Shown: one piece after another, positions 5,953-34,569 of the stretch | How positions within the stretch are numbered: position 1 is the stretch's first letter | Layout: every line of letters starts with the position of its first letter | DNA from: an uncultured Candidatus Bathyarchaeia archaeon | GTDB lineage: Archaea; Thermoproteota; Bathyarchaeia; Bathyarchaeales; Bathyarchaeaceae | DNA: 58,896 nucleotides | NCBI GenBank assembly: GCA_964618655.1 | Contig: CAZUFG010000001.1 | Coordinates: 1-58,896 of the forward strand | Direction: 5' to 3' | Program-made: the position numbers and the translations under genes | The notes under the pieces: generated by a model | What the model was told of the DNA's origin: nothing | Databases searched by the model: none | What the model saw: the letters and a program-made list of their open reading frames with translations, nothing else

Positions 5953-7860
5953 TCAGCATGATTTTCCAAATCTGCCTGCGAGTATGATCATGTCTAGAAT
6001 GTTCACGGTGCCGTCCCTATTCAGGTCAGCCCATGGATTCCATCTTGGATGCCCTTCAGATGTGCCGAATGCGTCCGCGGCTATGATACAGTCCAGTATA
6101 TTAACCTTCCCGTCGCCGTTTATGTCGCCCAAGATTCTAATTTTCACTTGGCCGTCAGTGAAGATATTATCTGTCAAGTCGGTCTCGTACGGAACTTGAT
6201 CGGCTTCTGCACTTATATTGTAGTAGTGGCATGGCTGCACGCCCTTGGTAATCCATGTTATAGTAACGTTTGTCTCGTTGCCTGGAGCCAAATCATTGAC
6301 AGTAACTTCTCCAATTGCATTTCCGTCATATTTGGCAGTGACGTTGAATGTTTCTGATAGGTTTCCTTCGTTTCTGACCGTTATGGTGATGTTAACTGGC
6401 CATCCCTCGTATGTCATGTTTTGAGCTGGAACCACATTGACTACAGCCACGTCTCTTATGAGTGTCATGAAGAAGCCATCTCCCACTTCGTGAGGCATCG
6501 GATTTCCAGACGAGTCGGTAAGGCTAGTACTGTTCAAGTCCAGAACTGTCCATCCAATGGAGTCAACTTGGAATAGAATATTGACTAATGGCAATGGAGT
6601 AAATGTTGTGATTGGACTTGCTGGAGGATCTAACGTAACGTTAACCCACACGTAACCAACCTTGTCGTCAACAATGAATTTGCCACTTGGACGAATTCCA
6701 CTTAGGTCTGGGCAGATGATGGCACCCCAGCAGGTTAGGACACGCGTATCATAAGTTAGGTTAAATATGTAGTTGTATAGGCTATCAACGTCATCGACCA
6801 TTATTGTAATGTTGAAAGTTGCAGGCGGCAACATTGTTGGATCGATGATTTCTGGCGGTTCCACGTAGAGTTTCGCCATCATAATGTTGTTAAAGGAGCC
6901 GTTAGAAGTTGTGTGGGGAAGAGGCTCATCCAATTGATCGGTAAGTTCGGTTTCAGAGAGAGTTAGGGCGCTTGCTCCTAAGCCTTCAACATGGAATGTT
7001 ACAATCGCTAAAGTTCCGTTACCGCTTATAGGCGGTTCTGGTGAAGATAGAGAGGCTGAGAACGTTAAGTAGCCAGCTGTATTGTTTATTTCCTTGAGCG
7101 GCGTGACTGTGGGCGGGAAGAAGTCTCCTAATACGACGTCTGTGGCGTTTAATATGCTGGGATCAAAGCTTAGTTTAAATTGGAAACTGTAAACGTCAGT
7201 TGCATTGGCGATTGTTATGTTAACATCAAAGTTGTTGCACGGAACCAGAGCGGGGTCGAAAATTTTTGGTGGATTCACATAGATTTTAGCGGTTGGTGGC
7301 GGTGGTGAATTCTTAAAGTATCCATCGATGGCGTCGTGAGGTAACGGATTAGCCTCGATGTCTCCAATTATGCTATCTGTTAAGTCTATGATGCTGGAGC
7401 CTATGTCCTTCACTTTTAACGTGATCTTTGCTAGGGTTCCGTTGCCAGATTTGGGCGCATACCCCTTTTCTATGGCCCTCGTCAGGTTCTTGTATGTAAC
7501 AGCGTACTCTGCATAGCCGCCATATATCGACAGTGCGAGGACCCAGAGGTTTCCGGTGTCGCTGTCAGGCGTCATGAAATGGCCTGTTGGAAGCTCAATG
7601 CTTACACCTTCCAAAATGGCGCTGTCCCACTGAACCTTGAATTGTGGACCTCCAACGTTTGCTGCGTCTCTGATTTTCACGTCGACGGTAAAGTTTTGTT
7701 CCGGAAGCAGAGTTGGATCAACTATGCTTGGCGGGTCTATATAGATTTTCATTGCAGCCGGATCAGCGGAAACCGTGTTTAGTGGGAACTGAATCATGCT
7801 GAGTAGGAATAGAATCAAAACTACAGATAACATACTCTCGATTTTTTTCGTCATTGCCAC
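5953..7860 (-). CDS. Adaptor scaffoldin-like protein: signal peptide, three cohesin-like modules, a CARDB-like module and a class C dockerin
   Basis: 635-aa ORF. Cohesin 1 is class A (AANVGGPQFKVQWDSAILEGVSIELPTGHFMTPDSDTGNLWVL). After a PPPP linker come cohesin 2 (ATDVYSFQFKLSFDPSILNATDVVLGDFF...GNGTLAIVTFHV) and cohesin 3 (VDSLYNYIFNLTYDTRVLTC). The CARDB-like segment is RDVAVVNVVP...VNITITVRNEGNLSETFNVTAKYDG...TDLTDN. Confidence 0.75.
   Translation of the reverse strand: MAMTKKIESMLSVVLILFLLSMIQFPLNTVSADPAAMKIYIDPPSIVDPTLLPEQNFTVDVKIRDAANVGGPQFKVQWDSAILEGVSIELPTGHFMTPDSDTGNLWVLALSIYGGYAEYAVTYKNLTRAIEKGYAPKSGNGTLAKITLKVKDIGSSIIDLTDSIIGDIEANPLPHDAIDGYFKNSPPPPTAKIYVNPPKIFDPALVPCNNFDVNITIANATDVYSFQFKLSFDPSILNATDVVLGDFFPPTVTPLKEINNTAGYLTFSASLSSPEPPISGNGTLAIVTFHVEGLGASALTLSETELTDQLDEPLPHTTSNGSFNNIMMAKLYVEPPEIIDPTMLPPATFNITIMVDDVDSLYNYIFNLTYDTRVLTCWGAIICPDLSGIRPSGKFIVDDKVGYVWVNVTLDPPASPITTFTPLPLVNILFQVDSIGWTVLDLNSTSLTDSSGNPMPHEVGDGFFMTLIRDVAVVNVVPAQNMTYEGWPVNITITVRNEGNLSETFNVTAKYDGNAIGEVTVNDLAPGNETNVTITWITKGVQPCHYYNISAEADQVPYETDLTDNIFTDGQVKIRILGDINGDGKVNILDCIIAADAFGTSEGHPRWNPWADLNRDGTVNILDMIILAGRFGKSC
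5956..6135 (-). other. Dockerin module, class C
   Basis: ILGDINGDGKVNILDCIIAADAFGTSEGHPRWNPWADLNRDGTVNILDMIILAGRFGKSC. It has a duplicated DxNxDGxxNxxD calcium loop plus helix. Confidence 0.9.
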
Positions 7861-7907
7861 CTTCTCCTCTCTTCCTTGCTGATAAATACAATGTGAGGGT
7901 TTGGGGA

Positions 7908-7934
7908 TTATAAGGCTTCTGGAACTAACTTCTA
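7908..7934 (-). promoter_or_regulatory. Island promoter: TATA (TTATAA, 7908-7913) plus box TAGAAGTTAGTTCCA (7920-7934)
   Basis: The gap between box and TATA is 6 nt. The TATA box lies 48 nt upstream of ATG 7860. The SD-like sequence GGAGAAGGTGG precedes the ATG. Confidence 0.6.
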
Positions 7935-7975
7935 AGCCTTTTTTATGACCACGAGGCTATGTTCCCTATTTTTAG

Positions 7976-8722
7976 CTAAGTTTCGCTTTTTCCGAAGTTT
8001 TCAGCAAGTTTTATGGCGTCAAGAATGTTGACGACACTATCCTTATTGAGGTCTGCTCTGGAGTCCCAGTTCGGATCGCCTGGCTTTGAACCGAAGGCTT
8101 TCGCTAATATGATGGCATCAAGAATATTTACGGTGCCGTCTCCATTGATGTCGCCTAGCAGTGGTGGTGAATTCTTAAAGTATCCATCGATGGCGTCGTG
8201 AGGTAACGGATTACCCCCGGGGTCTCCAATTATGCTATCTATTAAGTCTATGATGTTGGAGCCTGTGCCCTTCACTTTTAACGTGATCTTTGCTAAGGTT
8301 CCGTTGCCAGATTTTGGTGCGTAGCCCTTTTCTATTGCTTTGGTCATGTTGTAGTATGTAACGGCGTAGTTTGCATAGCTGGCGTATATCGCCTTCGTGA
8401 TTATCCAGAGGTTTCCGGCGTCGCTGTCAGGAGTCATGAAATGGCCTGTTGGAAGCTCAATGCTTACACCTTCCAAAATGGCGTTGTTCCAACTAAGCCT
8501 GAATTCCACACCTCCAACGTTAGCTGCATCTCTGATTTTCACGTCGATGGTAAAGTTTTTTTCCGGAAGCAGAGTTGGATCAATTATGCTTGGCGGGTCT
8601 ATGTAGATTTTCATTGCAGCCGGATCAGCGGAAACCATGTTGGGTAGGAACGGGATCATGCTGACTAGCAATAAAATCAAAACTACATAGGACATGCTCA
8701 TGATTTTTTTCGTCATTGCCAC
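7976..8722 (-). CDS. Minimal cohesin-dockerin protein: signal peptide, class A cohesin and class A dockerin
   Basis: 248-aa ORF. Its N-terminal 190 aa are near-identical to those of the 5953-7860 product (MAMTKKI.SM...DPAAMKIYIDPPSI.DPTLLPE.NFT.DVKIRDAANVGG...). The dockerin follows directly after NSPPLL. Confidence 0.8.
   Translation of the reverse strand: MAMTKKIMSMSYVVLILLLVSMIPFLPNMVSADPAAMKIYIDPPSIIDPTLLPEKNFTIDVKIRDAANVGGVEFRLSWNNAILEGVSIELPTGHFMTPDSDAGNLWIITKAIYASYANYAVTYYNMTKAIEKGYAPKSGNGTLAKITLKVKGTGSNIIDLIDSIIGDPGGNPLPHDAIDGYFKNSPPLLGDINGDGTVNILDAIILAKAFGSKPGDPNWDSRADLNKDSVVNILDAIKLAENFGKSET
7979..8161 (-). other. Dockerin module, class A
   Basis: LLGDINGDGTVNILDAIILAKAFGSKPGDPNWDSRADLNKDSVVNILDAIKLAENFGKSET. 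Confidence 0.9.
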
Positions 8723-8796: not shown

Positions 8797-8838
8797 AGCC
8801 TTTTTTTACTGACTACTAGGCTATGTTCTTCTTTTTGG

Positions 8839-9687
8839 CTAAGTTTCTCTTTTTCCGAAGTTTGCAGCAAGTTTTATGGCGTCAAGAATGTTGACGGCGT
8901 TATCTTTGTTGAGGTCTGCTCTCGGGTCCCAGTTTGGAGATCCCTGCTTTGAACCGAAGGCTTTCGCTAATATGATGGCATCAAGAATATTTACGGTGCC
9001 GTCTCCATTGATGTCGCCTAGCACTGGTGTAGTCGTTGAGACTCTTATGGTATAGGTTTTGTTGCTCTGCAGTCCGAGGCTGTCGGTGACGGTTAGGGTC
9101 ACGGTGTAGTTTGCTTCTGTAGTGTAAACATGTAGTATGGTTGCATTACTTACAGTTGTGATGTTGCCGTCGCCGAAATCCCACTTATAACTTACAATTG
9201 GAAGAATGTGCGTCCCGTTCCAGCCGGGTGATGACCTAGAAGCATTAAAGATAACGGTTTCATTTGGATAGGGTCTGGATGGGTACCATACGAAGTCAGC
9301 TGTGGGTCCCGTGGGCGGTATGACATCTATTGGTTTAGATTTGGTGCACCATAACCCTTCACTGTCTGTTATGTTTAGGGTAACGGTGTATGTTCCCGTT
9401 TTTGTGTAGATGTGAGTTGCTATGGGTTGCGTTTCGTTGATTTTGGCCGTGTCGTCGCCGAAGTCCCATTCGTAACTAATGATAGTCCCTCCGTCAGGTG
9501 TTGAGGATGAAGCGTTAAAGGTTACTGTTGTGTTGACGTAGGGCTGGAGTGGCGAATAGGTGAAGGAGGCTTGTGGTGTGGATTCAGCATAAACTAGGAC
9601 TTTATCATTGAGAAGTCTTGTTGCAGTTGCTGTGCATCCAAATACGAATAATGCTGTAAGAATAATGCATCTCATTTTCATTTGCAT
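8839..9687 (-). CDS. Secreted protein with two PKD domains and a class A dockerin
   Basis: 282-aa ORF. Signal peptide: MRCIILTALFVFGCTATA. PKD signatures: FNASSSTPDGGTIISYEWDFGDD...YTVTLNITDSEG and FNASRSSPG...VSYKWDFGDGN...YTVTLTVTDSLG. Confidence 0.8.
   Translation of the reverse strand: MQMKMRCIILTALFVFGCTATATRLLNDKVLVYAESTPQASFTYSPLQPYVNTTVTFNASSSTPDGGTIISYEWDFGDDTAKINETQPIATHIYTKTGTYTVTLNITDSEGLWCTKSKPIDVIPPTGPTADFVWYPSRPYPNETVIFNASRSSPGWNGTHILPIVSYKWDFGDGNITTVSNATILHVYTTEANYTVTLTVTDSLGLQSNKTYTIRVSTTTPVLGDINGDGTVNILDAIILAKAFGSKQGSPNWDPRADLNKDNAVNILDAIKLAANFGKRET
8842..9024 (-). other. Dockerin module, class A
   Basis: VLGDINGDGTVNILDAIILAKAFGSKQGSPNWDPRADLNKDNAVNILDAIKLAANFGKRET. Confidence 0.9.
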
Positions 9688-9792: not shown

Positions 9793-11070
9793 TCAACCAG
9801 TCTTTTTTCCAAAGTTTGCTGCAAGTATTATGGCGTCGAGGACGTTGACGACGTTATCTTTGTTGAGGTCTGCTCTCGGGTCCCAGTTCGGATCGCCTGG
9901 CTTTGAACCGAAGGCTTTCGCCAGTAAGATGGCGTCGAGGACGTTGATGATGCCGTCGCCGTTAATGTCGCCTAGAAGAAAAATTGTGAATGTTGTGCTA
10001 TTGGTAGCTACTGGTCGGTTTAAATATCGGGAAGTTGAGTATGCTGTATACTGGCCTGATGGTGCACGATAACCCTCGGTGCTTGGTAGTTTAAACAATA
10101 GGCTGTAGGTTCCCTCTGTAGACGTAAAGTAAACTATTTTGCTTGTAGATGTTGTCGTGGTCGATGCACCTCCACCTCCGACAGAAATCGTGAAGGTCGC
10201 AGATTTCTCCGGGCAGTATGGTGTTCCCCCATTCTTCGGCAGTTTGTCAAAGAGGCTGGCGTACACCGTTGCGTTACCGAGGGTGGCCAAATCTGGAATG
10301 AGTACCTCCGTAGACGCCCAGCTAGTTGAACCTGGTGAAACCTCCATTACGACTAGAATAGTGGCGAAGAAGGGAACAGTTTTCACGTCATATATATTGA
10401 TTGTAGCCATCACAGTTCTCGAATCATTGTCATTGTTTTTGAATGTTACTTTAAAATACGCTAGTTTTCCCCTTTCGAAGACGTATTTGGGATTCAGATA
10501 TGAATCGCATGGCAGCACCTCCAGAATCTCTACCAACGGGTTGCTGGGAGGCGTAGCACCTGTGGGCAGGGTTCTGAGGATGAATTCTTCATTCAATGGA
10601 TTGTTTGTCTGCAAACCTACTAGGCCATCTGGGACGGGTGACTGGCCTAATGTTAAGTTTCCAGAAACTCGGACGCTTTGTCCTGGGTTGTAGATGGTTT
10701 TATCTGCTGTCACAGTAACTTTAAGTAGTCCGAGAATGTTTATCGGTTTTGTTGTGGTACACCATAACCCTTCATTGTCTGTTACATTGAGTGTAACAAT
10801 GTATGTTCCGGACAGCGTGAAACTATGTGTTGTTATTGGATCCGTTTCTACAATTTCAGGTGTGCCGTCGCTGAAATTCCATTTATACGAGATGATGTAT
10901 CCGTCGGGATCGTAGCTTTCTGAGGCATTGAATGTGACCGTCGTGCTTTGAAAGGGTTCAAGTGGTGAGTAAGTAAAGTAGGCCTCAGGAGGTTGTATCG
11001 AAAAGCATGTTTGGGCTCCTGCCAAGAACAGTAAGGAAATTAAAAATGTAAAAATTACTTTCTTAAGCAT
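9793..11070 (-). CDS. Secreted protein: PKD domain, two beta-sandwich-like modules of unknown family, a G/T-rich linker and a class A dockerin
   Basis: 425-aa ORF. Signal peptide: FTFLISLLFLAGAQTCFS. PKD signature: FNASESYDPDGYIISYKWNFSDG...YIVTLNVTDNEG. Linker: GGGGASTTTTSTS. Confidence 0.75.
   Translation of the reverse strand: MLKKVIFTFLISLLFLAGAQTCFSIQPPEAYFTYSPLEPFQSTTVTFNASESYDPDGYIISYKWNFSDGTPEIVETDPITTHSFTLSGTYIVTLNVTDNEGLWCTTTKPINILGLLKVTVTADKTIYNPGQSVRVSGNLTLGQSPVPDGLVGLQTNNPLNEEFILRTLPTGATPPSNPLVEILEVLPCDSYLNPKYVFERGKLAYFKVTFKNNDNDSRTVMATINIYDVKTVPFFATILVVMEVSPGSTSWASTEVLIPDLATLGNATVYASLFDKLPKNGGTPYCPEKSATFTISVGGGGASTTTTSTSKIVYFTSTEGTYSLLFKLPSTEGYRAPSGQYTAYSTSRYLNRPVATNSTTFTIFLLGDINGDGIINVLDAILLAKAFGSKPGDPNWDPRADLNKDNVVNVLDAIILAANFGKKTG
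9796..9978 (-). other. Dockerin module, class A
   Basis: LLGDINGDGIINVLDAILLAKAFGSKPGDPNWDPRADLNKDNVVNVLDAIILAANFGKKTG. Confidence 0.9.
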
Positions 11071-11234: not shown

Positions 11235-13124
11235 CTACGCCCATGCAGCTAATATGGAGACTGTTGGTGGTTCTCCGGTAGATGTGTCTACGTATTCTGG
11301 GGTCCATGCGGCTCCGCAGAACCACGGTAGTTCGCTTAGGGCGTTGACGTGTATGGTTGCGGTGCCTGCACGTACGTGCTTATGCACATGTACTTTTACA
11401 CTGACCGTGTAGTTCGCGTAGTGACACCATTCTGCTCCGCCCACTTCTGTGCGGATGATCTTCATGCCGAATGGATATTGTAGTTCGTCCTTGAGCACTA
11501 TTGTGATGACTACTGGGTAGGTTAGTATTGCCTTGCTCTTGAAATTAACTGTGATGTTTATGTATTCGCAGTGTTTGTATTCCGCTTTGTCTGTGGTTAC
11601 GCTCACCCATCTTACGACCCAGTCGTAGTGGAACCAGAGCCAGTCTTTCACTGTTTGGGATGCTATGTCTACGCTAGCGACGACTGTGAAGACTCCGCAT
11701 AGTGCCCATCTATATTCTGGCCACGGTATTCTGAAGTCGACGAAGGCTGTACCGTTCTCGTCTGTCTCGGCTGATAGTATGATGACGAGTTCTCCTTGTG
11801 GGTCGCGTACCTCAAAGGTAACAACTTTCTGTTGTTCTGGCCATTCATTGTATGAAACGTTTGCCCATAGCCATATCTTCTTTTGTGGATACACCAAGTC
11901 AGCGGTCTCGTTTAGGCCTTGTCCACCGTACGGGTCTGGGTATGGTGTTGGTGGGTAGTCTACGTATCCGTCTGATCCCATGTATACGTCGATCATGCGT
12001 CCCAGCACTTTGGCCTTTATCTCATACCAGGCGTCACGTGCTGGAGTTGTGACAGGGATCGATTCACCTGTCTCGTCGCCGGCCATGTTGAAGGCATCGT
12101 CAAGGTCTAACCAGTCGCCTAAAACTACTGGGAACATGCCTTGCAGTATAGCCTTGAACTTGATCGTGGCTATTACCCCTTCGCCAGATGGGAATGGCGG
12201 ATACCATGTGGGCGGGAAGGTGGTGCTGTTTGGAAGAATCATTCCTCCGACCATCACGTAATCGTCTTCCACAATCTTTATGTAGAATACGCCTTCGTTT
12301 GGTGGTCCCGCGTAGGCTTCTAGGAATGTTCCGTTCTTCACTTCAAGGACTTCTAGTAGGGTTGTATTGTAGTGTAGCTTGAATTGGAAGCCGACAAGAT
12401 GCCAAGCTGCATCCACATCTTGGAGCTTTATGTCGATTTCGAATTCCTCGTTTAGAAGCTTGGCAACATACTTTGTTGGGTCTATCTGTCTCGTGTCCAC
12501 TTTGAAGTGTACCGGACCTGGTGGACCCCACTCATTCTTGTAGTAGCCATCATCTAGAGTTTGGGGCATTTTCACGCCGTCTGAGTCACCAAAAATGGTT
12601 TCCTCGGGTACAAAGGTTATGTTCGTGTCTACAAAGCCTTTCCATGGGGCTGGAGCGACGACCTCGAACAGGACTCTGAGGACGGTTCCACTTTCGTTTT
12701 TGGGCAAGTAGCCTTTTTCTTTTGCTCTGGTTAGGTTATAGACTGTGACAGCTACGGAGGCGTAGTCGTCACCAGCAGTTGGGGGTCCGATGAGGTTGAT
12801 GTTTCCTTCTTCGCCAGCCGGCGGCGCAAACCAGTAGCCTGCTGGAAGTGATGCGCTCTTTCCTTTTATGACCGAAGAGTTCCAAGTTATCTTGAGTTGG
12901 TAACCGCAGCATCCGTCGGTTGCGTTTCCTACGTCTTTTACTTTCACGTCAAGGTAGAATGTGGTGGTTGGAGCCCCGTTTACTAGAACTTTTGGATCAG
13001 GATCTATATACAGTGTTCCGCCTGAGGGTACATATGCGTGCGCTGGTGGAAGTACTGCTCCCATGCTTGCTAAGAGCATTGCCACTAGAACCATGATAGA
13101 TGCTTTTGTCTCTGTTCTATTCAT
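11235..13124 (-). CDS. Secreted scaffoldin-like protein: class A-like cohesin, class B cohesin and a C-terminal ~260-aa beta-rich region. No dockerin or anchor was recognised.
   Basis: 629-aa ORF. Signal peptide: ASIMVLVAMLLASMGAVLPPAHA. Cohesin 1: FYLDVKVKDVGNATDGCCGYQLKITWNSSVIKGKSASLPAGYWF...ESGTVLRVLFEVV. Cohesin 2: WHLVGFQFKLHYNTTLLEVLEVKNGTFLEA...GEGVIATIKFKA. Confidence 0.65.
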   Translation of the reverse strand: MNRTETKASIMVLVAMLLASMGAVLPPAHAYVPSGGTLYIDPDPKVLVNGAPTTTFYLDVKVKDVGNATDGCCGYQLKITWNSSVIKGKSASLPAGYWFAPPAGEEGNINLIGPPTAGDDYASVAVTVYNLTRAKEKGYLPKNESGTVLRVLFEVVAPAPWKGFVDTNITFVPEETIFGDSDGVKMPQTLDDGYYKNEWGPPGPVHFKVDTRQIDPTKYVAKLLNEEFEIDIKLQDVDAAWHLVGFQFKLHYNTTLLEVLEVKNGTFLEAYAGPPNEGVFYIKIVEDDYVMVGGMILPNSTTFPPTWYPPFPSGEGVIATIKFKAILQGMFPVVLGDWLDLDDAFNMAGDETGESIPVTTPARDAWYEIKAKVLGRMIDVYMGSDGYVDYPPTPYPDPYGGQGLNETADLVYPQKKIWLWANVSYNEWPEQQKVVTFEVRDPQGELVIILSAETDENGTAFVDFRIPWPEYRWALCGVFTVVASVDIASQTVKDWLWFHYDWVVRWVSVTTDKAEYKHCEYINITVNFKSKAILTYPVVITIVLKDELQYPFGMKIIRTEVGGAEWCHYANYTVSVKVHVHKHVRAGTATIHVNALSELPWFCGAAWTPEYVDTSTGEPPTVSILAAWA

Positions 13125-19108: not shown

Positions 19109-19127
19109 TCTCTACGCACTAATCTAT

Positions 19128-19541
19128 TCAACGTACATGTTCAGACGAATCAACGATATTGGAAACAGTCTCATCTACATAAGCCCAAAATTCTCTCTCT
19201 AATTTTTCGTAGGCTTCTCTTGACTTCAAATCTCGAAGAACAAAAACGCCTGCCCCCATGAGTGTTGCGATAGGAGCCAACAATCTGAATGCAAGCGAAG
19301 GCTGGGCAGACGCAAATTCCACTACAAATTCATCCGGATTCCCAAAAATTTTTACACGTATACTTTCACGCTTACCGTTAGAACGAATCAATACTCCTAA
19401 AACATTGTAGCCATCCGCCAATTTCTCTTTTAAGGTTTTAAAACCCTTATTTAAAAAGAAACGTTCAACTTGATCACTTAATAAATCGAGATTTATGTTC
19501 TTCCCCGTCCACTTTGTTTGCATTTGGGACCCCCATTTCAT
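19128..19541 (-). CDS. Hypothetical protein on the opposite strand, between the permease and ATPase genes
   Basis: 137-aa ORF with no motif I recognise. It has one hydrophobic segment (LAFRLLAPIATLMGAGVFVL). Confidence 0.4.
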   Translation of the reverse strand: MKWGSQMQTKWTGKNINLDLLSDQVERFFLNKGFKTLKEKLADGYNVLGVLIRSNGKRESIRVKIFGNPDEFVVEFASAQPSLAFRLLAPIATLMGAGVFVLRDLKSREAYEKLEREFWAYVDETVSNIVDSSEHVR

Positions 19542-19678
19542 GAAAAGATAATTGAAGTATCAAAAAAATATTACGGTGAACAAACTCACAAAAACTTATA
19601 TCTATCACTCCCTATCTCACAATAATAAAATCTGCAGGCTGTGTAAATGACTCAAAACGATGTAGGAAGATCCATCAA

Positions 19679-20644: not shown

Positions 20645-20658
20645 GGAGAGAAGTTTTC

Positions 20659-25358: not shown

Positions 25359-28300
25359 CTAGTACTTATTTCCGAAGTTGTTTGCGATTAGGATGAAGTC
25401 AAGAATGTTTATTTTGTTGTCTCTGTTGATATCGGCTAGTGAATTCCATTTTGGATGGCTTGGGTAAGAGCCGAAAGCAGATGAGGCTAAAATACAGTCT
25501 AATATGTTAACGGTTTTGTCATTGTTCACATCGCCTACCATTTTGAGTTTAACATAACCATCAATGAAGACATTATTATCTTGATCAGTTTCTCCAGGAA
25601 CAACGCTGGCTTCAGCCCACATTGTGTAATTGACGTAAAGTTGCAGACCTGTAGTGTTCCAACAGAATGTTAAAGTCATCTCTTCGCCAGTATGTAGATC
25701 AAAAACGGTTTTTGTTTCTATAGGTGTGCTCTCGTAGTAGGCGGTGACGGTGAAGGTTTCAGTTGAGTTCCCGACGTTTTTAGCCGTAACATTGATAGAA
25801 ATCATCCAGCCTGCGTAAGCTTCTGTTACGGATGGAACAACGCTAATTACCGCCACATCACGCATTAACGGAATAGTCATTGCAACCTCCGCTAAACCGT
25901 CAAGGGAACTGTGGGAAATGATCTCCCCCTCTGGATCCGCGAGTATCGTTTCACAGAGGTCTAATATGGAGTTACCTAATTCTCTAGCTTTGAATTGGAC
26001 TGTCACCAATATCCCGCTTCCAGTTTTCCCCGTTTCATTGCCTACATAATTGAACAACGAGAATGCAAAGTGTATACAACCATGTGTAGCATTGTATGCG
26101 TTGTTAGTCTCATTTATCCACACGTATATGTTGCGCGGATCAATTTCAGGCGTCAGAAAGTGTCCTGCTGGAAGCGTAACGCCACGTCCTTCTAAGATGT
26201 CGTTTTTATAAAACAGCTTGAACTCATATCCATAGAGATCTGAGACATCAGTGACTGTTATGTTTATCGTGAAGACTTCATCACGTATTACTATGCTTTG
26301 TATAGGGTCTATAGAAATGTATGTTCCTGTTACGGTGAACACCTGAACACTCATCATCACAACATTGTTTTTTGTGATAGCCTCGTCGTGAACTGGAGGT
26401 GCGTAAGCTGTCACGTTATATATGCCTTCAACTGTTGGGGTCCATAGATAGTTTAGCACATAGGAGGAATTGACTAACAATTCGGGAATCATTGCAGAGG
26501 CAACAATGCTACCATTAATTAGTAGATACAATTCTAAACCGGTTTCGTTACTTAGCCCATCGTTATAAACCGTTGCTTTAAGAATTGTCGGGGTGTTAGG
26601 CTTAAGACGTGGAGGCGCCCTCAATGAAACCACGAGCTCGTGTTCGTATCGAACGGGAGGAGGACGATATAGGATAACCCATTCGATCATATTTGTTAGA
26701 AGCTTCTCGGCTCCTATTCTGTCTTCATAGTAAAGGTGCCAGTCTGGGTCTTGTTGGGTTATTACGATCCGTCCACTGCCATATGTGGTTGCTAGCGTAA
26801 TCGGCGCTGAGATTTCTATACCCCATGCCAATGCCTTCCAAACATGGTGGACAAAGAATCCGTGGTAGGACATGCCCCAATTGCTAAGTTGAGCGTCGGT
26901 CAAACTGAACATAACAGGGTGGGTCGGGTCGAGAATCTGAACATTGTTTCCAGCAAATCCGTACGAGTTAACCCATAACGGGAGCCAATCCCACCTATTG
27001 CTCTCATAGAACTCCGAGAGGGCAACAATTCCGTTGCCAGCAGCCACCCAATCTGCTATCTCTGATGCACGGGCAAGCAACGCATCAACCACAGCGTCTC
27101 CTGGGCTCCATCCAACGAACAAAACGTTATACTGATACAGGTCAACTGTGGCAAATTCAGCTGGCGTGACTAAAGTATAGTTGTATCCCAACATGTCGAG
27201 GGCACCAGTATCCTCAGGCCAAGGCGTATCGACCACTAAGAGTCTTGGCGGATAGCGAACATGCACCATCTCGCTTACAACATTATTTGCTGTGTAGGTT
27301 TCGTTAAGTACCGAAGGTGCATATGCTGTAACATTGTATGTTCCCCCTATTGTTGGAGTCCACAGACAACTGAATGTAAAAGACTGCCCAGTTAACAAAT
27401 CTGGAACTATCACAGAGTTAAGGACGGTGCTATTAATCATCAACTGCAACTCCACGTTGGTTTCGTTGTTTAGTCCTTGGTTGTGAACAGTCGCATTAAG
27501 CATAACTGAAGTATCAGGCTCCAAGAATGCTGGAGCCTCTAGAGTCAAAGCAAGGTCATGCTGATATCGAATGTATGGTGTAGCCCATTCGATCATGTTT
27601 TTTAAAAGCTTCCCGGCTCCAAGTACATCGTTGTAGTAAAAGTGAAAGTCTGGGTCTTGATCAGTTATCACAATTCGTCCACTGCCGTACGTTGCCGCCA
27701 ACGTGATGGAGTAGCCAGCTTCTATTCCCTGAGCCAACGCCGTCCAATCTGCATGATAGCTGTAGAAGTAGCCATGATATGAGAACGACCAATAGCTAAG
27801 TTCAGCGTCGGTCAGATTGAACAGCACAGGGTGGGTTGGATCGAGAATGTGAACATTGTCTCCAGTATATCCGTACGAGTTAACCCATAACGGGAGCCAT
27901 GCCCACCTATTGCTCTCGTAGAACTCTGACAGGGCAACAATTCCGTTGCCAGCAGCCACCCAACCTGCGATTTCCGATGCGCGGGCAACCAACGCATTGA
28001 CTACATCATCTCCTGGCGTCCAACCAACGAATAGGATGTTAAACCTGTAAAGGTCGACTGTAGCGAATTCAGTTGGTGAGACTAATGTGTATTCGTATCC
28101 TAATCTATCAAGAACACCTGTGTCCTCAGGCACCGGAGTATCGATAACTAAGAGTTTTGGTGCACATCGGACACGCACCATCTGGGTTGCCACATTATTC
28201 TCCATGACCTCTTCACCAGGCACTGGAGGTGCATAGGCTGTCACGTTGTATGTTCCTTCAACAGTTGGGACCCAAAGATAGCTTAGCCTATAAGACTCTC

Positions 28301-31300
28301 CTACGAGTAGTTCGGGAATGACGACGAAATTAACAATAGTGCCATTAATCATTAATTGTAGCTCAACACTAGTCTCATTGTTCAATCCAAAGTTGCGGAC
28401 AGTTGCGTTCAGCAGCACCGAATTAATGGGCTCAAGAGAGGCTGGAGCCTTTAAAGTTACGGCGACATCATGTTCATATTTTTTGGGCATGTAGAGTAAA
28501 CTGTTTTCTAGTATTAGGCTGAGGCGGCGCTTGTAGGCCCATTCAAGCGTTTGGGACGAAGCGACTATGAAGCCTGACCCGTATCCAAATTCTAAGTATG
28601 CTGGCATTCTTGTGGAATCTTCAATTATTATGATATGAGCATCTGCGGGATAGACACTGAAGTATCCATGTACTGCATAATTCCAATTGTCAAGTTCCGC
28701 TTCGGTGATCATGTTAGGCGTGGTCAACACGGGATGCGTTGGATCCACAACAGTAACATATTGCCCATAGTAACTGGCCCACTGCAACCCTCCAGGGAGC
28801 GGACCCACCCATCGTCCACCATGCCAGCCTCCGTCTGCCGCATGAATCTCCAATATGCCACCATTATTCACGTAATCCTCAAACCACCATCGATAAGTAT
28901 CCATGCCATCGTAGAAGGCCTGATCCTGGTCCGAAGCGATGACTACTTTTGTAAAAGTGCTTAAATTAACTCTGCCAAAATCGCTTGAACTAAACACAAC
29001 ATAGGGAACGCCGTAACGGTCAAGAGCTTCCTCATTTGATGGATAGTCCCACGGGTTCCAATTCTGAAACAAAGCCACAATAAGAGTAGAAACAATGACT
29101 TTTACTGATTTGACGTTGTTTGTTATGTCATCTTCGCCATACACCGGAAAAGCATAAGCTGTTATGTTGTATATTCCTTCAATAGTTGGAGTCCAAAGAT
29201 GGCCAAGGGTGTAAGAATCTCCAGCCCATAGCTCTCGAATCGTGGTTGAGTCAACGATAGCATCGTTAATTAATAATTGGAGTTCTACATTGGTTTCGTT
29301 ACTCAATCCCATATTTGAAACGGTCGCGTTCAATAACGCAGATTGGCCTGGTTTAAGCGCTTCCGGCGCTTCCAAAGACACGCCTAGTTCATGTTGAGGC
29401 TTTTGGTAACGTGACCATGTTATGGCGTTGTATAGTAGTTGCAGGTGATGGTGATAGTAGGCTGGTATAACTTCTAGCCATGGAGAAATGTACACTAAGC
29501 CTCTGTACGTGACTATTGCGCTTTCTTGATAGTGCCCAAGTGCAAGATATTTGCCCTCCACCAATTCGTTTGAATCCCATCGCCCGTCGAAAGGAAGTGC
29601 AGTTCCGACTTGTGGAAAAACCAGCGGGTTTGGAACATTAGCGAAGATAGGATGCGTTGTGTTCACTAGATGCAAAAGATCCGTTTGCGTTGCACTCCAC
29701 GTTGCGGTTTCGTTCATCCCAAACAGTGGTGCAAGCTTGTTGTTGTTTGGAACCCAGTAATAAAGCGTTCCCGCCGTGGCTATTAGACCGTGCCCCTCAA
29801 GAACATATCGTTTGATTGCTTCGATTTCAGAGTCTATGAACTGCCACCCCATCCCAGGATCGTAGGCACACGAAATAATCAAAACATCTGCTTCTGTCGA
29901 GGCAATATCCTCGTAGGTGATAACCTCTTTGTTTAAAGTCGTATAATCAATGTAGACCATGGTGTCGCCAAACATATGCCATTCATTGTTCAGCACTTGC
30001 CAATTAGTGATTATGTTGCCTTGAATGTTGCCTGCAGAATGCAACACAACAGCCTTCAACGGAAATCCAACATAGACATATTTCCAGACTACATTGTTTT
30101 CCACACTTGTTTCGCCGGGCACTGGCACCACGTAAAGCGTAACGTTGTATAATCCTTCAACTGTTGGATTCCATGTGAGACTAACTGATGTCGAGTTCCC
30201 ACTGGCAAGGGAGCCTATCAACGTAGAGTCTACCACGGTGTCGTTTGCTAGCAGTTGCACTGATACATCGGTTTCGTCATTATCTCCGAAATTAAGTATA
30301 GTAGCGTTTACGATTGCTAAAGCACCAGGTTCCACATAGGGCGGGGTTCTCCATTCATAAGCTATCATTTCATGGGCTGCCGGAGTCTGCTCCACAGCCT
30401 TTCTCGCGTTTATTCTTCCATATCCATAGTATACGTCGAAACCAGGGTCGCCCAAGTCATTAGCGGTGTATCGTAGCCACAGCCTCACCCAATCTCGTGT
30501 CTTGTTTGGATAGCGGCTCCATACAAGGGCAGCCACGCCCGAAACATGCGGAGTAGCCATGGAAGTGCCACTCCAAGACTCATAACCCCAAGGAACCGTT
30601 GAATGTATGGAGACTCCAGGTGCGGCTAGTTCAATCCATTCACCCCAGTTTGAAAATGAAGCTTTGCTGTCATACTGATCTGTCGCAGCCACAGCGATGA
30701 CTTCGTCGTAGCCTGCTGGATACAGCTTCATGTTTGTATTGTCATTTCCTGCAGCTGCGATCACCAGCACTCCGGCGTCATAAGCATACCTAACGGCCTC
30801 ATGTACTAGTTCGCTGTCGCTATACCCTCCTAAGCTCATGCTAATTATGTCAGCTCCGCTGTCCGTCGCGTTTATGATGCCATTTGCAATCCAGTCCCAG
30901 TATCCCCCGCCAGCGTTGTTTAAAACTTTTTCAGCCATAATCCGAACTTGCGCCAGCCCAGCAATGCCTATGCCATTATTTAAAACAGCTGAAATTATGC
31001 CTGCGCAGTGAGTGCCGTGGCCGTGATCATCCCAAGGGTCAGCATCCATATTCACCCAATCGTAGCCCAGGGCGACATAGTTTGCTGCAAGGTCAGGGTG
31101 GGTGTAGTCGATGCCTGTGTCGACAACAGCTACAAGAACTGAGGGGTCGCCTACCGTTGTGTTCCATGCCCAATCCGCCTCTATCTTCTGCGGCCCCCAT
31201 TGCAGGTTCCAATATGGGTCGTTTGGAACAAATTGAGCTTGAACCTTCATGTCGGGCTCTACGTAGCTTGCTAACCCTACAGTGTGTACCTCTTCTACAA

Positions 31301-31754
31301 AAGCCGTCACCGACGCTAATAAAAGCTCGACAACCGCCGCCCTAACTTGGCCTCCAATTGAAACAGTGTTAACAATTTCAGCTTGGTGTTTAGCCGCTAT
31401 TTTCTCTAGTTCAAGGAAGCTGGTAGGTTCCTCGCTGTCGACTCCAACTATTAGTCTAGTCTTATTGCCGTCTATGTAGGCGAATTTGCTCCATTCGCTT
31501 GTGCTGTTGAAGTCCCATTTATCCCCGCTATCGCGCGAAGTCTGACTGGGGCTTTCTAAAGTCTCCTCTTGACTGGCATCTGGTTTACTTTCAAAAACAT
31601 TTCGCTGGTTTTTATCAAAACTTTCCGGAAAATCCTTACCGAGAATACCGTTTTCATCGTTTTCTGCCAATGATGGCTTTGCGGTAAATGCTATGCTTAA
31701 CGTGCTCATGAGAATTAATGTCAACATTAGAAGACTGATTATTCTCTTTTTCAT
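25359..31754 (-). CDS. Giant secreted S8 subtilisin-family protease. Domain order: I9-like propeptide, S8 domain, four (CARDB + ~200-aa alpha/beta module) units, a further CARDB, a cohesin, a CARDB and a class C dockerin.
   Basis: 2131-aa ORF with a signal peptide. The catalytic triad lies in VAVVDTGIDYTHPDL (Asp212, about nt 31119-31121), HGHGTHCAGII and SGTSMATPHVSG. The S8 domain spans about 30375-31232. CARDB-like units read LNATV.N.G.NNET.VELQL..N...V......L..G.S......W.PT.EG.YN.T.Y. Cohesin: FTINITVTDVSDLYGYEFKLFYKNDILEGRGVTLPAGHFL...GSGILVTVQFKA (about 25900-26340). Confidence 0.85.
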   Translation of the reverse strand: MKKRIISLLMLTLILMSTLSIAFTAKPSLAENDENGILGKDFPESFDKNQRNVFESKPDASQEETLESPSQTSRDSGDKWDFNSTSEWSKFAYIDGNKTRLIVGVDSEEPTSFLELEKIAAKHQAEIVNTVSIGGQVRAAVVELLLASVTAFVEEVHTVGLASYVEPDMKVQAQFVPNDPYWNLQWGPQKIEADWAWNTTVGDPSVLVAVVDTGIDYTHPDLAANYVALGYDWVNMDADPWDDHGHGTHCAGIISAVLNNGIGIAGLAQVRIMAEKVLNNAGGGYWDWIANGIINATDSGADIISMSLGGYSDSELVHEAVRYAYDAGVLVIAAAGNDNTNMKLYPAGYDEVIAVAATDQYDSKASFSNWGEWIELAAPGVSIHSTVPWGYESWSGTSMATPHVSGVAALVWSRYPNKTRDWVRLWLRYTANDLGDPGFDVYYGYGRINARKAVEQTPAAHEMIAYEWRTPPYVEPGALAIVNATILNFGDNDETDVSVQLLANDTVVDSTLIGSLASGNSTSVSLTWNPTVEGLYNVTLYVVPVPGETSVENNVVWKYVYVGFPLKAVVLHSAGNIQGNIITNWQVLNNEWHMFGDTMVYIDYTTLNKEVITYEDIASTEADVLIISCAYDPGMGWQFIDSEIEAIKRYVLEGHGLIATAGTLYYWVPNNNKLAPLFGMNETATWSATQTDLLHLVNTTHPIFANVPNPLVFPQVGTALPFDGRWDSNELVEGKYLALGHYQESAIVTYRGLVYISPWLEVIPAYYHHHLQLLYNAITWSRYQKPQHELGVSLEAPEALKPGQSALLNATVSNMGLSNETNVELQLLINDAIVDSTTIRELWAGDSYTLGHLWTPTIEGIYNITAYAFPVYGEDDITNNVKSVKVIVSTLIVALFQNWNPWDYPSNEEALDRYGVPYVVFSSSDFGRVNLSTFTKVVIASDQDQAFYDGMDTYRWWFEDYVNNGGILEIHAADGGWHGGRWVGPLPGGLQWASYYGQYVTVVDPTHPVLTTPNMITEAELDNWNYAVHGYFSVYPADAHIIIIEDSTRMPAYLEFGYGSGFIVASSQTLEWAYKRRLSLILENSLLYMPKKYEHDVAVTLKAPASLEPINSVLLNATVRNFGLNNETSVELQLMINGTIVNFVVIPELLVGESYRLSYLWVPTVEGTYNVTAYAPPVPGEEVMENNVATQMVRVRCAPKLLVIDTPVPEDTGVLDRLGYEYTLVSPTEFATVDLYRFNILFVGWTPGDDVVNALVARASEIAGWVAAGNGIVALSEFYESNRWAWLPLWVNSYGYTGDNVHILDPTHPVLFNLTDAELSYWSFSYHGYFYSYHADWTALAQGIEAGYSITLAATYGSGRIVITDQDPDFHFYYNDVLGAGKLLKNMIEWATPYIRYQHDLALTLEAPAFLEPDTSVMLNATVHNQGLNNETNVELQLMINSTVLNSVIVPDLLTGQSFTFSCLWTPTIGGTYNVTAYAPSVLNETYTANNVVSEMVHVRYPPRLLVVDTPWPEDTGALDMLGYNYTLVTPAEFATVDLYQYNVLFVGWSPGDAVVDALLARASEIADWVAAGNGIVALSEFYESNRWDWLPLWVNSYGFAGNNVQILDPTHPVMFSLTDAQLSNWGMSYHGFFVHHVWKALAWGIEISAPITLATTYGSGRIVITQQDPDWHLYYEDRIGAEKLLTNMIEWVILYRPPPVRYEHELVVSLRAPPRLKPNTPTILKATVYNDGLSNETGLELYLLINGSIVASAMIPELLVNSSYVLNYLWTPTVEGIYNVTAYAPPVHDEAITKNNVVMMSVQVFTVTGTYISIDPIQSIVIRDEVFTINITVTDVSDLYGYEFKLFYKNDILEGRGVTLPAGHFLTPEIDPRNIYVWINETNNAYNATHGCIHFAFSLFNYVGNETGKTGSGILVTVQFKARELGNSILDLCETILADPEGEIISHSSLDGLAEVAMTIPLMRDVAVISVVPSVTEAYAGWMISINVTAKNVGNSTETFTVTAYYESTPIETKTVFDLHTGEEMTLTFCWNTTGLQLYVNYTMWAEASVVPGETDQDNNVFIDGYVKLKMVGDVNNDKTVNILDCILASSAFGSYPSHPKWNSLADINRDNKINILDFILIANNFGNKY
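25362..25535 (-). other. Dockerin module, class C
   Basis: GDVNNDKTVNILDCILASSAFGSYPSHPKWNSLADINRDNKINILDFILIANNFGNKY. Confidence 0.9.
26643..28472 (-). repeat. Two tandem ~915-bp coding repeats inside the protease gene (26643-27560 and 27561-28472). More divergent copies lie at 28473-29393 and 29394-30374.
   Basis: The encoded ~305-aa units, HDLALTLEAPAFLEPDTSVMLNATVHNQGLNNETNVELQLMINST... and HDVAVTLKAPASLEPINSVLLNATVRNFGLNNETSVELQLMINGT..., are collinear. Long stretches are identical, for example AAGNGIVALSEFYESNRW.WLPLWVNSYG. Near-identical DNA runs occur at about 27025-27085 and 27930-27990. Confidence 0.85.
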
Positions 31755-31805
31755 TTTCCTTTCTCCTCTTAATCTTGGGCACAGAAGTTTATGTTATCAT
31801 TAACC

Positions 31806-31831: not shown

Positions 31832-31902
31832 TAACGTAAGTTAGTATAGTTGCGCTAAGCAGCTCTCATTTCCTTTGCGTGGACGCAACAACTTTTCAAC
31901 AT

Positions 31903-31920
31903 AATAAAGAAAGGGGGGAG
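31903..31920 (-). terminator. C-rich/T-rich tract 3' of the beta-helix/cohesin/dockerin gene fragment
   Basis: The minus strand reads CTCCCCCCTTTCTTTATT, about 25 nt after stop codon TAA (31945-31947). Confidence 0.35.
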
Positions 31921-31944
31921 TTGAGGTTGTTTCTGATGTTTTAT

Positions 31945-34569
31945 TTAAGGATCTGGCCTTACTTCTCCGAAGTGATTGGCTATCAGTATACAATCGAGGA
32001 TGTTTACGACTTTATCGTGGTTTATGTCTGCCAGTGGGTTCCAGCGTGGATGACTTGGGCGGGTTCCAAAAGCGCCAGCTAAAATAATACAATCTAGTAT
32101 GTTGGTTCTTCCATCGAAGTTCAAATCGCCCATTGAGGTTGGTACTATGTCGTAATATCCATGTTCCACGTCGTGTGAGATTGTGTTTGATTCGGTGTCG
32201 CCGAGTATGGTGTCAAACAATGTCAGGTTGCATGAGAGTATTGGATTTTCTAAGCCCATGAGTTGATATTTAACCCTGAATGTTATCGTTGCTAGGGTCC
32301 CGTTCCCGCTTGGGAATGTTGTCCAGTTGCCTATTCCTGTGCCTTGAGGAATTAGCAGGATTCCTAGTTGAACGTAGTCTTCTTCTATGATTGGGCCATA
32401 ATAGAGGGTTTCGCCGGCTTGTTCCATGAAGGTGCCGTTGGATACTTCAACGATCTCCAGAAGGGTTGTGTTATAGCGGAGCTTAAACTCTACACCAACA
32501 AGTTTCCATGCCCAACTTAGACCATTGATGGTTATGTTGATGTCGAAGGTTTCGCCTAGTTGCTTGGCGTGGTAGGTTGGAGGCTCCACTTTTAGTAGTG
32601 GGCTGGGTAGCGGCTTTGGATAATCCAGCCATGGGTCATACAGAACATAATCGCTGACATCGTCGCCTAAACCGTAATGCGGGCCATAGGGTTGTCCCAT
32701 GTAAAGCCAGCTTGTCTCATGATACGGTCCAGTTGCGTCGCCCCACCAATTGTAGCGGGCGTCAAAGGTTACATTGTTGCCAGCGTAGTCGGGGTCTTGG
32801 ATAACGCCGTATTCTCTGTTGTTGTAGATGTTGTTGTAGTTGGCGTATGAGTACGAGTTTGCGACTACTTCAATTCCGTAGTAGTTGTTATAAATGTCGT
32901 TGCAGCTCATAACAACCGTAGAAGATGGCAGATCATAGAAAGCTACCCATCCGTCAATTACTATGCCAGCAGAAGACCAAGATGGTGATGGATGCGTATT
33001 GTCGCAGTTGTATATGTCATTTCCAAGAATTTCAACATCGCATGGTTCGTTCCAAGGCTCTATTTCAATTCCATAGTTAACGTAGTCTTGATCGCTGTAG
33101 ACTTGACCTTCTATAATACAGCTGTATACTCCACCGCTACAACCGTCATAGAAGAACACTCCTATTCGCCCAAAGTTTTTGACTGTGCATTTCCCTGACG
33201 CTTACATCTGAGCCATCCCAAATTCCAATAGCGCTACCAACCATGTCGCCAATGGTATTTGGAGATATTATGCAACCTCTGATTGTTCCTATCGACTCTT
33301 CGTATATAACTCCATAATTTTTACCGGGGCCTAATCCCTGTCCTTCGATATCCAAGTGCCACAAGGTTACGACAGCATTCTCGACAAAAATCACTGCTTC
33401 TCTGGTTCCATAGTTAGTGGTGAATGAACCGCTCCCTTGGACTATAGGAAGGCTTGCGCCAATTATGGATATATTCTTGTTTATGTATAATGCTTCGTTG
33501 TATGTGCCTTCATGCACCATTACTGTGTCGCCTGGGCTTGCTTCGTCTATAGCCTCTTGAATAGTTCCAGTTGGGTTTACATGATAAGTTCTTGGAGTAG
33601 TTTCAAAGGTTGCGCCGAGCCATGGACTGTAATCAACATAGTCGCTGATGGCGTCTCCTGTGCCGCCTGGATTAGATGAATGCGTTGGACCGCTTGCGTC
33701 ACCCCACCAGTTAAAGCGAGCATCGAATATCTGACTTGAATCCCAGTTTCTGACACCTTCAGTGTTGCCATAGAGATTGTTGTAGTGTGCCGTGTTTCCA
33801 GGTCCGGGTTCATCTCCAGACCCAGTGTAGTATGGGGAGCCAGGCCCCAAGAGGTGGATTCCGTAGTAGTTGTCGTGGATTTGGTTGTATTCGATAACAT
33901 TGTAGGCGCATTCTGCTGCCCATTCTAGTTCTATGCCCTGAGAGCAGTCGTAAACTTCGTTACCGCGGACAGTGCTATAGCTGCTCGGACCTATACCAAT
34001 GTCATTGTCGTATACCTCGTTGTACTCAATTATGACCCCGTCTTTTGCTGCATACCCCATTATGCCGCAACTCAACCATGTTGTTCCCGAATATTTATTG
34101 TTGGAGACTGTGTTGTAGCTAACAGTGCCTCCAGTCTCGAAAGCGAGGACTATGCCGTTTGGAACCTGATCCGGCCCGATTGTACCTGGGCCGACGATGG
34201 TATTGTCGTGTATGTCAACGGTCAGCTGAGCTCCTCGCGCTGTGATGCCGTTCTTGTTATAATAGCTGATGCGAGAATTCTCAACCTCTACCGAAACTGA
34301 GGTGCTGACGGCGTCCAGCCACATCCCATAGGTGCGAGTGGCAATTGGTACGCTGTTCATGTTAACGACCGTCACATCGTCTATGGTGCCAGCGGTCTCG
34401 CCATATGAGATGCCTACAACATAGTTTGCTCCTCCAGGGAGCCCATCTACGTTAACTCCATCCACTTTAAGATCTTCCACTGTGACACCCGCGGTTCCCA
34501 CGTTCTCGACGCTTATGATGCTTGCGAGCTCTTGGCCATTCCAGAAAGCTCCTGCCTGAGTCCCAAGAG
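31945..34569 (-). pseudogene. 3' fragment of a split parallel beta-helix (NosD/CASH-like) - cohesin (class B) - dockerin (class C) gene, also carrying a 1-nt frameshift
   Basis: Track ORFs 33146-34501 and 31945-33159 are consecutive pieces of one protein. The frame of the upstream piece stays open beyond the assigned GTG up to 34609, with no ATG, signal peptide or promoter. Beta-helix rungs and two (A/D)R(F/Y)NWWGDA(S/T)GP motifs are present. Cohesin: WKLVGVEFKLRYNTTLLEIVEVSNGTFMEQ...GNGTLATITFRV. The frames switch at the T3C3 run 33190-33195. Deleting one nt there gives ...GIWDGSDVSVRECTVKNFGRIGVFFYDG.... Confidence 0.7.
31948..32130 (-). other. Dockerin module, class C
   Basis: GDLNFDGRTNILDCIILAGAFGTRPSHPRWNPLADINHDKVVNILDCILIANHFGEVRPDP. 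Confidence 0.9.

Follow-up and report, generated by a model that had tools for sequence, protein, structure and literature searches.

Multi-tier cellulosomes, such as those of Acetivibrio cellulolyticus (ScaA/ScaB/ScaC), Pseudobacteroides cellulosolvens and Ruminococcus flavefaciens (ScaA/B/C/E), share one logic, in which an anchor cohesin holds an adaptor and the adaptor holds dockerin-bearing cargo, with several cohesin and dockerin types per genome. Here, we analysed an island of cohesin and dockerin genes that follows the same logic in an archaeon, an uncultured Candidatus Bathyarchaeia, on a stretch of 58,896 nucleotides of contig CAZUFG010000001.1 (assembly GCA_964618655.1), hereafter called the window. 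It is contig C1 of a 1.33-Mb metagenome-assembled genome, 75% complete, labelled G000 among the compared genomes. The single-cohesin anchor ScaE of R. flavefaciens, which carries a sorting signal, has its parallel in the smaller of two anchors of the island. In contrast to the multi-tier cellulosomes, the adaptor's first cohesin is here of the same type as the anchor cohesin, anchoring relies on PEF-CTERM or transmembrane (TM) tails and not on S-layer homology domains or LPXTG, and the scanned cargo consists, in place of glycoside hydrolases (GH) and carbohydrate-binding modules (CBM), of a subtilase, an Opp-type solute-binding protein (SBP) and PKD, beta-helix and beta-propeller proteins.

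The Ruminococcus bromii amylosome (PMC4611034) and the toxin/glycosidase complexes of Clostridium perfringens are non-cellulosomal, and some of their enzymes carry both a cohesin and a dockerin. They resemble in this respect the subtilase, the beta-helix protein and a minimal cohesin-dockerin protein of the island, but they are bacterial, have carbohydrate-active cargo and are without a conserved three-cohesin adaptor with positionally fixed classes. Among archaea, the anaerobic methanotrophs (ANME) have non-cellulolytic cohesin and dockerin proteins, some of them scaffoldin-like and combining as many as 5 cohesins with a single dockerin (Chadwick et al. 2022, PMC9012536; Timmers et al. 2017, PMC5244752), and dockerin-bearing NikA/OppA-type binding proteins (PMC9012536). 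The island lies in a different phylum-level lineage, and whereas the ANME papers list domain architectures, we analysed classes, positional orthology, gene order and the concerted evolution of anchor and first-module cohesins. The cohesin and dockerin of Archaeoglobus fulgidus bind specifically in experiment (Bayer 1999; Haimovitz 2008, as cited in PMC9012536) and, as Peer et al. 2009 is quoted in the same paper, form a single pair without multi-cohesin scaffoldin or tiers. In the literature searched, no description of such a system in Bathyarchaeia was found. Archaeal non-cellulolytic multi-cohesin systems are already known; the variant in Bathyarchaeia we regard as new.

We propose, with a probability of roughly 0.55, that the island encodes a non-cellulolytic, layered cohesin-dockerin assembly on the Bathyarchaeia cell surface, with differentiated sockets (cohesins) and role-linked plugs (dockerins). 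Hierarchical assembly, which a preliminary description of the window had suggested, is well supported by the cohesin-only proteins with TM or PEF-CTERM tails (5136 and 3486), the adaptor with three cohesins and a dockerin (5953), the dockerin-only cargo and a conserved gene order. That the cohesin and dockerin classes encode binding specificity, as that description also proposed, is plausible. In the first tier, the cohesin proteins 5136 and 3486 would be fixed to the membrane by their tails. The second would comprise the adaptor, with its three different cohesins, and 7976 as a mini cohesin-dockerin connector. The third would be dockerin-tagged cargo, namely two PKD proteins, the 2131-aa subtilase, beta-helix proteins, the SBP of an adjacent Opp importer and at least nine others encoded outside the window.

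Cohesin classes and the positional modules of the adaptor

Modules were searched with the Pfam families Cohesin (PF00963, curated cut-off 24.1 bits) and Dockerin_1 (PF00404, 22.9 bits), and cohesins also with a profile built from the window modules and run on the own genome. Dockerin_1 exceeded its cut-off in seven open reading frames (ORFs), 5953, 7976, 8839, 9793, 13354, 25359 and 31945, with 23.0-42.2 bits. The genome-wide scan placed these dockerins at 5977-6132, 8006-8158, 8869-9021, 9817-9975, 13378-13527 and 25377-25535; for ORF 31945 the last repeat alone scored (31966-32031). Pfam Cohesin matches above cut-off were obtained for 3486 (two modules, 55.7 bits), 5953 (72.7), 7976 (28.8), 11235 (30.2) and 31945 (35.3 bits), and the cohesins of 5136 (E = 1.2e-36) and of the protease (E = 2e-61) were detected solely by the window-module profile. 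This profile recovered all 12 cohesins of the preliminary description and 4 more on other contigs, i.e. 16 modules genome-wide (12 in the window, two on C106, one each on C30 and C110), against 20 dockerins. All 7 dockerins and 12 cohesins claimed for the window were confirmed in this way, the cohesin of a putative regulator being a weak match. The ORFs that carry them lie on the minus strand, except the regulator-cohesin gene.

In each of the four dockerin classes described below (A, C, S and L), the two repeats, segments of ~22 residues with an EF-hand-like loop and a helix, retain the Ca-binding residues D1, N3, D5, N9 and D12, and the closest solved dockerin, 2y3n_B of P. cellulosolvens Cel48, aligns without gaps (E = 3.6e-14). 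A phmmer search of 7976 and 5953 against the PDB matched dockerins and no cohesin. Pfam scans that covered the window cohesin/dockerin proteins plus nine from contigs other than C22, C30, C54 and C189 gave no GH or CBM family, and a true cellulosome was rejected on this ground. The other families in the window proteins were PKD, CARDB, SBP_bac_5, Peptidase_S8 and beta-helix/NosD, to which the wider set adds a PQQ-type propeller.

In a maximum-likelihood tree of the 16 cohesins, where paired figures are branch supports, two classes of the preliminary description were recovered. Class A (95/93) unites the first modules of 3486, 5953 (m1) and, more distantly, 11235 with the single modules of 5136 and 7976, and also takes in the second module on C106; identity is 49-80% in its core and 32-41% for the distant members. 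Class B (95/96; 32-63% identity) holds the second modules of 3486 and 11235 and the module of 31945. Cohesins of different classes, and the unclassed modules against all others, share 14-37% identity. The description of the remaining modules as divergent holds at this level of identity, but the second and third modules of the adaptor (m2 and m3) turned out to be old classes of their own, as clustering by position across orthologues revealed.

The adaptor family counts 230 matches at E ≤ 1e-10, and homologues of the adaptor carry NCBI names of the kind 'Candidatus Bathyarchaeia/Bathyarchaeota archaeon'. Among the best 120 matches, 108 share the architecture Coh-Coh-Coh-Doc with ~630 aa. An AlphaFold2 (AF2) model of 5953 built on 60 homologues reached a predicted local distance difference test (pLDDT) of 89.4 and consists of three all-beta modules, in agreement with the nine-stranded beta-sandwich (jelly-roll) of solved cohesins, followed by helices at 588-597 and 621-629. 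Its top Foldseek match in the PDB is 3l8q, the type II cohesin dyad of A. cellulolyticus ScaA (E = 4e-15), and 4fl4 and 3kcp also match; the predicted template modelling score (pTM) of 0.57 for the single chain fits beads on a string.

Across 11 genomes the adaptor modules clustered by position and not by genome, with an m3 clade at 100/99 and an m2 clade at 97/90. With 45 orthologues (135 modules), the position labels needed 3 changes on the tree, the minimum being 2, and m3 formed a single clade at 98; shuffled labels needed a mean of 75 changes in the four-group test (~39 for one label). The three modules m1, m2 and m3 are, in other words, ancient positional classes. The mean pairwise identity among 75 adaptor orthologues was 32% for m1, the fastest-evolving part, and 47-50% for m2, m3 and CARDB. 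In 6 of 8 genomes the neighbouring anchor cohesin grouped with the m1 of its own genome, at 48-89% identity compared to 30% for m1 against m1 across genomes. Class A is the anchor/first-module type, kept alike within each genome by concerted evolution.

Cohesins matching class A (E ≤ 0.001) were found in 38 of 61 related genomes, and of 251 genomes from the order 102 have dockerins, in many cases at least 20 each. Cohesin-only proteins with a C-terminal TM tail are numerous in the relatives, as are proteins that combine cohesin and dockerin. The gene order 11235-like, cargo, adaptor, anchor is kept in G245, G187, G228, G097, G057, G071 and G198, which belong to several families of the order. 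The island's closest copy, at G245:C9:1-7479, runs through SBP-dockerin, 11235-like, cargo, adaptor and PEF-CTERM anchor genes without a change of order, and its helices are likewise of the 'NILD' type. The two genomes are assigned to different families, G245 to f9 and G000 to f1; either the island moved horizontally or one of the genomes is misplaced.

Dockerin classes and their role-linked signatures

The two dockerin classes of the preliminary description, A and C, were both recovered in the dockerin tree, on which approximately unbiased (AU) tests were run. Genome-wide, the dockerins form four groups, and the largest of them lies outside the window. Class A comprises 7976, 8839, 9793 and C5_8807, 78-88% identical, a closeness that is in part due to recent duplication, 7976 and 8839 (8832-9029) being 91% identical in their dockerin DNA. 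Class C (5953, 25359, 31945 and C40_4821) is one clade at 88/94, with 49-63% identity. The dockerin of the SBP (13354), which had been counted in class A in divergent form, forms a group at 92/88 with the first of the two dockerins on C22_7745, a paralogue of this SBP; we name this type class S. Forcing it into class A cost 13.3 log-likelihood units (AU p = 0.086), so that the placement is disfavoured and not rejected, AU tests on a 68-column alignment being underpowered. Similarly, a clade of the three window members of class C alone was absent from the best tree and not rejected (AU p = 0.11).

Class C had been said to occur only on proteins that also carry a cohesin. This is so for 3 of 3 in the window, but C40_4821 is a small NosD-type beta-helix protein without a cohesin. 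The rule that a dockerin of HPRWN type implies a cohesin on the same protein was dropped: among the best class-C-like matches of 29 relatives, ~11 were with and ~7 without a cohesin, and as this sample was picked with the class C profile, the count indicates enrichment at most and is not used as support. Descent from a common Coh-CARDB-Doc cassette would account for the association of class C with cohesins.

Class L, the fourth group, comprises seven proteins on other contigs. In their dockerins, which are 71-85% identical, the repeats are separated by a stretch with conserved cysteines and an insert of 8 residues ('HFGHxNGNGHTPxTKEWxxC'). Its profile scored the members at 147-154 bits and the other dockerins at no more than 60 bits. 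The same profile found no member in the 250 other genomes of the order, and co-occurrence can therefore not point to its cohesin partner. The carriers, on C20, C38, C40, C54, C110, C146 and C22, include a second SBP_bac_5 protein, a PQQ-type propeller protein, CARDB/PKD proteins and a cohesin-bearing protein. The one on C22 (G000:C22:7745-12445) is a paralogue of the SBP 13354, 1567 aa from stop to stop, with two different dockerins: one of class S lies internally, straight after the SBP part, and one of class L lies C-terminally, preceded by CARDB and a propeller-like region. It could bridge two cohesin types.

Across genomes, dockerin signatures are tied to the role of the protein, 'GHPRWN...C' in adaptors, 'EDLN...FGW' in SBPs and 'DPNWDPRAD' in cargo. 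The SBP signature is common to the dockerins of G000 (two), G245 and G205, and in these three genomes the SBP gene adjoins a cohesin gene of the 11235 type. Among the adaptor orthologues, 58 of 108 have the H-x-R/K-W linker and 88 of 108 the C-terminal Cys. The classes differ at helix positions 13, 15, 18, 19 and 22 and in the linker, and the signatures lie mostly in this inter-repeat linker. When six syntenic cargo/adaptor gene pairs were compared, the dockerin helices were 62% identical within a genome between different roles and 38% between genomes for the same role. For the linker, the corresponding values were 46% and 57% over all pairs, and adaptor dockerins alone reached 71% across genomes.

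Proposed wiring and its alternatives

In the layered assembly, the class A cohesin would be the socket of the anchors and of the first adaptor module, co-evolving in each genome with the fast-changing dockerin helices, and m2, m3 and class B would be old, slowly evolving sockets, most likely with different partners. The plugs would follow the role, class C for the adaptor, A for cargo, S for the SBP and L for lineage-specific proteins. On this basis, the class C dockerin of the adaptor may dock on the class A cohesins of the anchors; as m1 belongs to this class too, head-to-tail chains of adaptors would also be possible. For the SBP dockerin, the partner may be the class B or 11235-type cohesin encoded beside it, so that the binding protein would stay close to its transporter, and other cargo would fill m2, m3 and the remaining sockets.

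A number of observations weigh against such a code. In G000, helix positions 10, 11, 14 and 17 of both repeats, which we take to be the main cohesin contact face by analogy with type I complexes, are I, L, I and A in all four classes. The helices are homogenised within genomes across roles, which fits promiscuity at least as well as a code. Between classes the dockerins are 50-66% identical, i.e. shallow where the cohesin classes are deep and also in comparison with the type I/II/III divergence of cellulosomes, from which the shared helix faces set them apart as well. About 20% of the adaptor orthologues have a cargo-like 'DPNW' linker, and dockerins of HPRWN type are also found on cohesin-less proteins, in relatives and on C40_4821. 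If the partner of the class A cohesin were dockerin class C or A, 5953 or 7976 would be self-complementary. The genome being 75% complete, partners may be missing. Finally, the partial Mantel correlations of dockerin-helix divergence with the other adaptor regions (m1 r = 0.39, m3 0.30, m2 0.085, CARDB -0.02), which speak for differentiated sockets, are a weak hint, as rate differences between regions can give spurious partial correlations.

The invariant contact positions and the homogenised helices would be expected if the classes recorded descent, by tandem duplication, shuffling of Coh-CARDB-Doc and CohB-Doc cassettes and gene conversion, and if most dockerins bound most cohesins in a loose, promiscuous surface network, a scheme that we consider possible but doubtful. 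Traces of such descent are visible in the island. The signal peptide and cohesin DNA of 7976 are 88% identical to the 5' part of 5953 including m1 (compared stretch 7301-7600) and its dockerin is nearly that of 8839, so that 7976 looks like a recent chimera that joins a cargo dockerin to the 5' part of the adaptor gene. A homologous CARDB-dockerin tail is present in both protease and adaptor, and the class L proteins also carry CARDB-Doc. The CohB-DocC cassette of the beta-helix protein is 52% identical to the cassette on a different, unrelated cargo protein in G175, which indicates that the cassette moves between cargo proteins. This protein (G175:C51:6022-8271; 750 aa from stop to stop) consists of three repeats of an unidentified domain of ~160 aa followed by a class B cohesin and a dockerin; it was rejected as an orthologue of the beta-helix protein, the cassette being the sole shared part. 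Descent with free pairing does not, however, account easily for the sockets: m1, m2, m3 and class B have stayed distinct (14-37%) across many genomes and m1 alone is matched to the anchors, which is hard to explain if all sockets are equivalent. The role-linked linker signatures, moreover, persist across families, and to our knowledge no characterised multi-tier cellulosome has adaptor and enzyme dockerins of one and the same specificity.

The slow change of m2 and m3 raises another explanation, that these modules, and perhaps class B, bind targets other than dockerins (S-layer, glycan or substrate) or act as spacers, the classes then standing for different jobs. Indeed, m2, m3 and the CARDB spacer have one rate of evolution in common (47-50% identity) while the dockerin helices change fast (43%), m2 is nearly without partial correlation to these helices, and the deep cohesin classes outnumber the dockerin classes. 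We nevertheless judge this improbable, as m3 does co-vary with the helices, the strongest Pfam Cohesin match of 5953 falls on m2 and m3, both modules have a canonical cohesin fold in the AF2 model, and the class L dockerins and others still require sockets.

Gene content of the island and its possible function

Two genes encode anchors. The anchoring scaffoldin 3486..4988 (minus strand) has a signal peptide, a class A cohesin at ~4410-4862 and a class B cohesin at ~3951-4349 (Pfam, two stretches; tree), then an unknown domain of ~130 aa and, as read from the sequence, 'PEMP', a TM segment and a basic tail. The minimal anchor 5136..5786 (minus strand) has a signal peptide, one class A cohesin (5244-5690) and a PEF-CTERM-type tail, VLPEFPAILLLPVFMIATLVAIIITKK; its orthologue in G245 ends in the same type of tail. 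Directly downstream of the anchors, window positions 1-3198 (minus strand) encode a secreted PKD-repeat protein of more than 1066 aa, which runs off the contig start.

Across genomes, cohesin-only anchors end in PEF, PEL or PEY followed by a TM segment and a basic tail. In G000, ~11 ORF tails including that of 5136 read (I/V)PEF(P/Q/S) + TM + K/R-rich, and that of 3486 is a variant (PEMP). An NCBIfam scan of the anchors matched no PEF-CTERM or other informative model, and the PEF assignment is by pattern alone. The genome has an archaeosortase-family gene, G000:C137:484-1671, with 58.7 bits for TIGR04178 (cut-off 23) and 58.2 bits for PF09721; its product is far below the cut-offs of the closest subfamily models (thaumarchaeosortase 48 against 250, ArtC 35 against 100). 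ArtC reportedly recognises PEF-CTERM (PMC5244752). We infer that the anchors 5136 and 3486 are archaeosortase substrates.

The adaptor scaffoldin 5953..7860 (minus strand) carries m1 at 7309-7752, m2 at 6886-7290 and m3 at 6463-6876 (Pfam, positional orthology), a CARDB domain at 6157-6417 and a class C dockerin at 5956-6132 that ends in Cys. In the minimal cohesin-dockerin protein 7976..8722 (minus strand), ~6 residues separate the class A cohesin (8171-8614) from the class A dockerin (7979-8161; Pfam). Two cargo genes follow on the same strand. Cargo 8839..9687 encodes two PKD domains and a class A dockerin at 8842-9024 (Pfam PKD_4 and Dockerin_1; tree), and cargo 9793..11070 a PKD domain, an unknown domain of ~250 aa and a class A dockerin at 9796-9978 (Pfam). 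By synteny and tblastn, orthologues of 9793 adjoin the adaptor gene in G187, G228, G097, G057, G071, G217 and G245.

The gene 11235..13124 (minus strand) encodes a secreted two-cohesin protein without an anchor, with a distant class A cohesin at 12534-13016, a class B cohesin at 12048-12488 (Pfam; trees) and a conserved C-terminal domain of ~260 aa. Homologues were found in 41 of the 250 other genomes of the order, located in the same island. The SBP 13354..16236 (minus strand) is of the OppA/NikA type and carries its class S dockerin at 13357-13533 (Pfam SBP_bac_5, Dockerin_1). An oppBCDF-type ABC importer of two permeases and two ATPases (16353..21642, plus strand; Pfam BPD_transp_1, OppC_N, ABC_tran, oligo_HPY) is divergently transcribed from the SBP gene. 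Its OppC-type permease (17435-19108, 557 aa) has OppC_N at residues 19-56 and the permease domain from residue 370, with an insertion of ~310 residues after the first TM segment. This insertion, if extracytoplasmic as its position suggests, might offer the tethered binding protein a platform on which to dock.

The subtilase 25359..31754 (minus strand) has an S8 domain, six CARDB domains, an unclassed cohesin at 25893-26318, another CARDB domain and a class C dockerin at 25362-25538 (Pfam; own-genome profile). The beta-helix frame 31948..33201 (minus strand, 418 aa) has beta-helix rungs, a class B cohesin at 32149-32595 and a class C dockerin at 31948-32133 (Pfam). This gene is frameshifted near 33150-33200: the frame 33149-34609 ends in ...GIWDGSDVSVREMHSQKLWANRSVLL* and the reading continues in frame 31948-33201 from ...SGKCTVKNFGRIGVFFYDG, which implies an indel of one base, or of a length not divisible by three, near 33150-33200. 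The 404-aa beta-helix 'protein' is consequently a fragment, the 3' part of a disrupted or mis-assembled gene. A separate piece of beta-helix gene, at 37545-38372 (minus strand), carries a signal peptide, the whole broken region spanning 31948-38372. Further on, 38947..39780 (plus strand) encodes a membrane protein with a weak cohesin-like ectodomain, the 'regulator cohesin', which matched Pfam Cohesin at 19.9 bits, below the cut-off, and the window-module profile at E = 2.5e-4 before its own inclusion. No Pfam family matched this protein at E ≤ 0.001.

One possible function we put forward tentatively, with less than even confidence: the Bathyarchaeia of this order may have in common a conserved machine that harvests peptides outside the cell. 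It would be the counterpart of a cellulosome for protein degradation, and would have a positional code. The adaptor would be held by a cohesin with a lipid or TM anchor, and its three sockets would have become fixed and different from one another before the families split. As the first socket is kept like the anchor socket, adaptors could polymerise into cell-bound chains. The other two sockets would place the giant subtilase and PKD or beta-helix proteins beside the Opp importer, and the binding protein of the importer would be docked by its dedicated SBP-type dockerin.

For the cohesin-dockerin field, it is unusual that the sockets of an adaptor are ancient positional classes, that anchor and first-module cohesins evolve in concert, and that dockerin helices are genome-specific and linkers role-specific. 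These features amount to a natural experiment on how specificity is encoded, and protein engineering might draw orthogonal pairs from them. In anoxic sediments, Bathyarchaeia rank among the most abundant archaea; they have long been proposed to use detrital protein, and we know of no isolate that is easy to work with. A conserved surface-anchored scaffold, if true, would give these archaea a concrete and testable mechanism for protein use, uniting a subtilase, an oligopeptide-binding protein and the matching importer.

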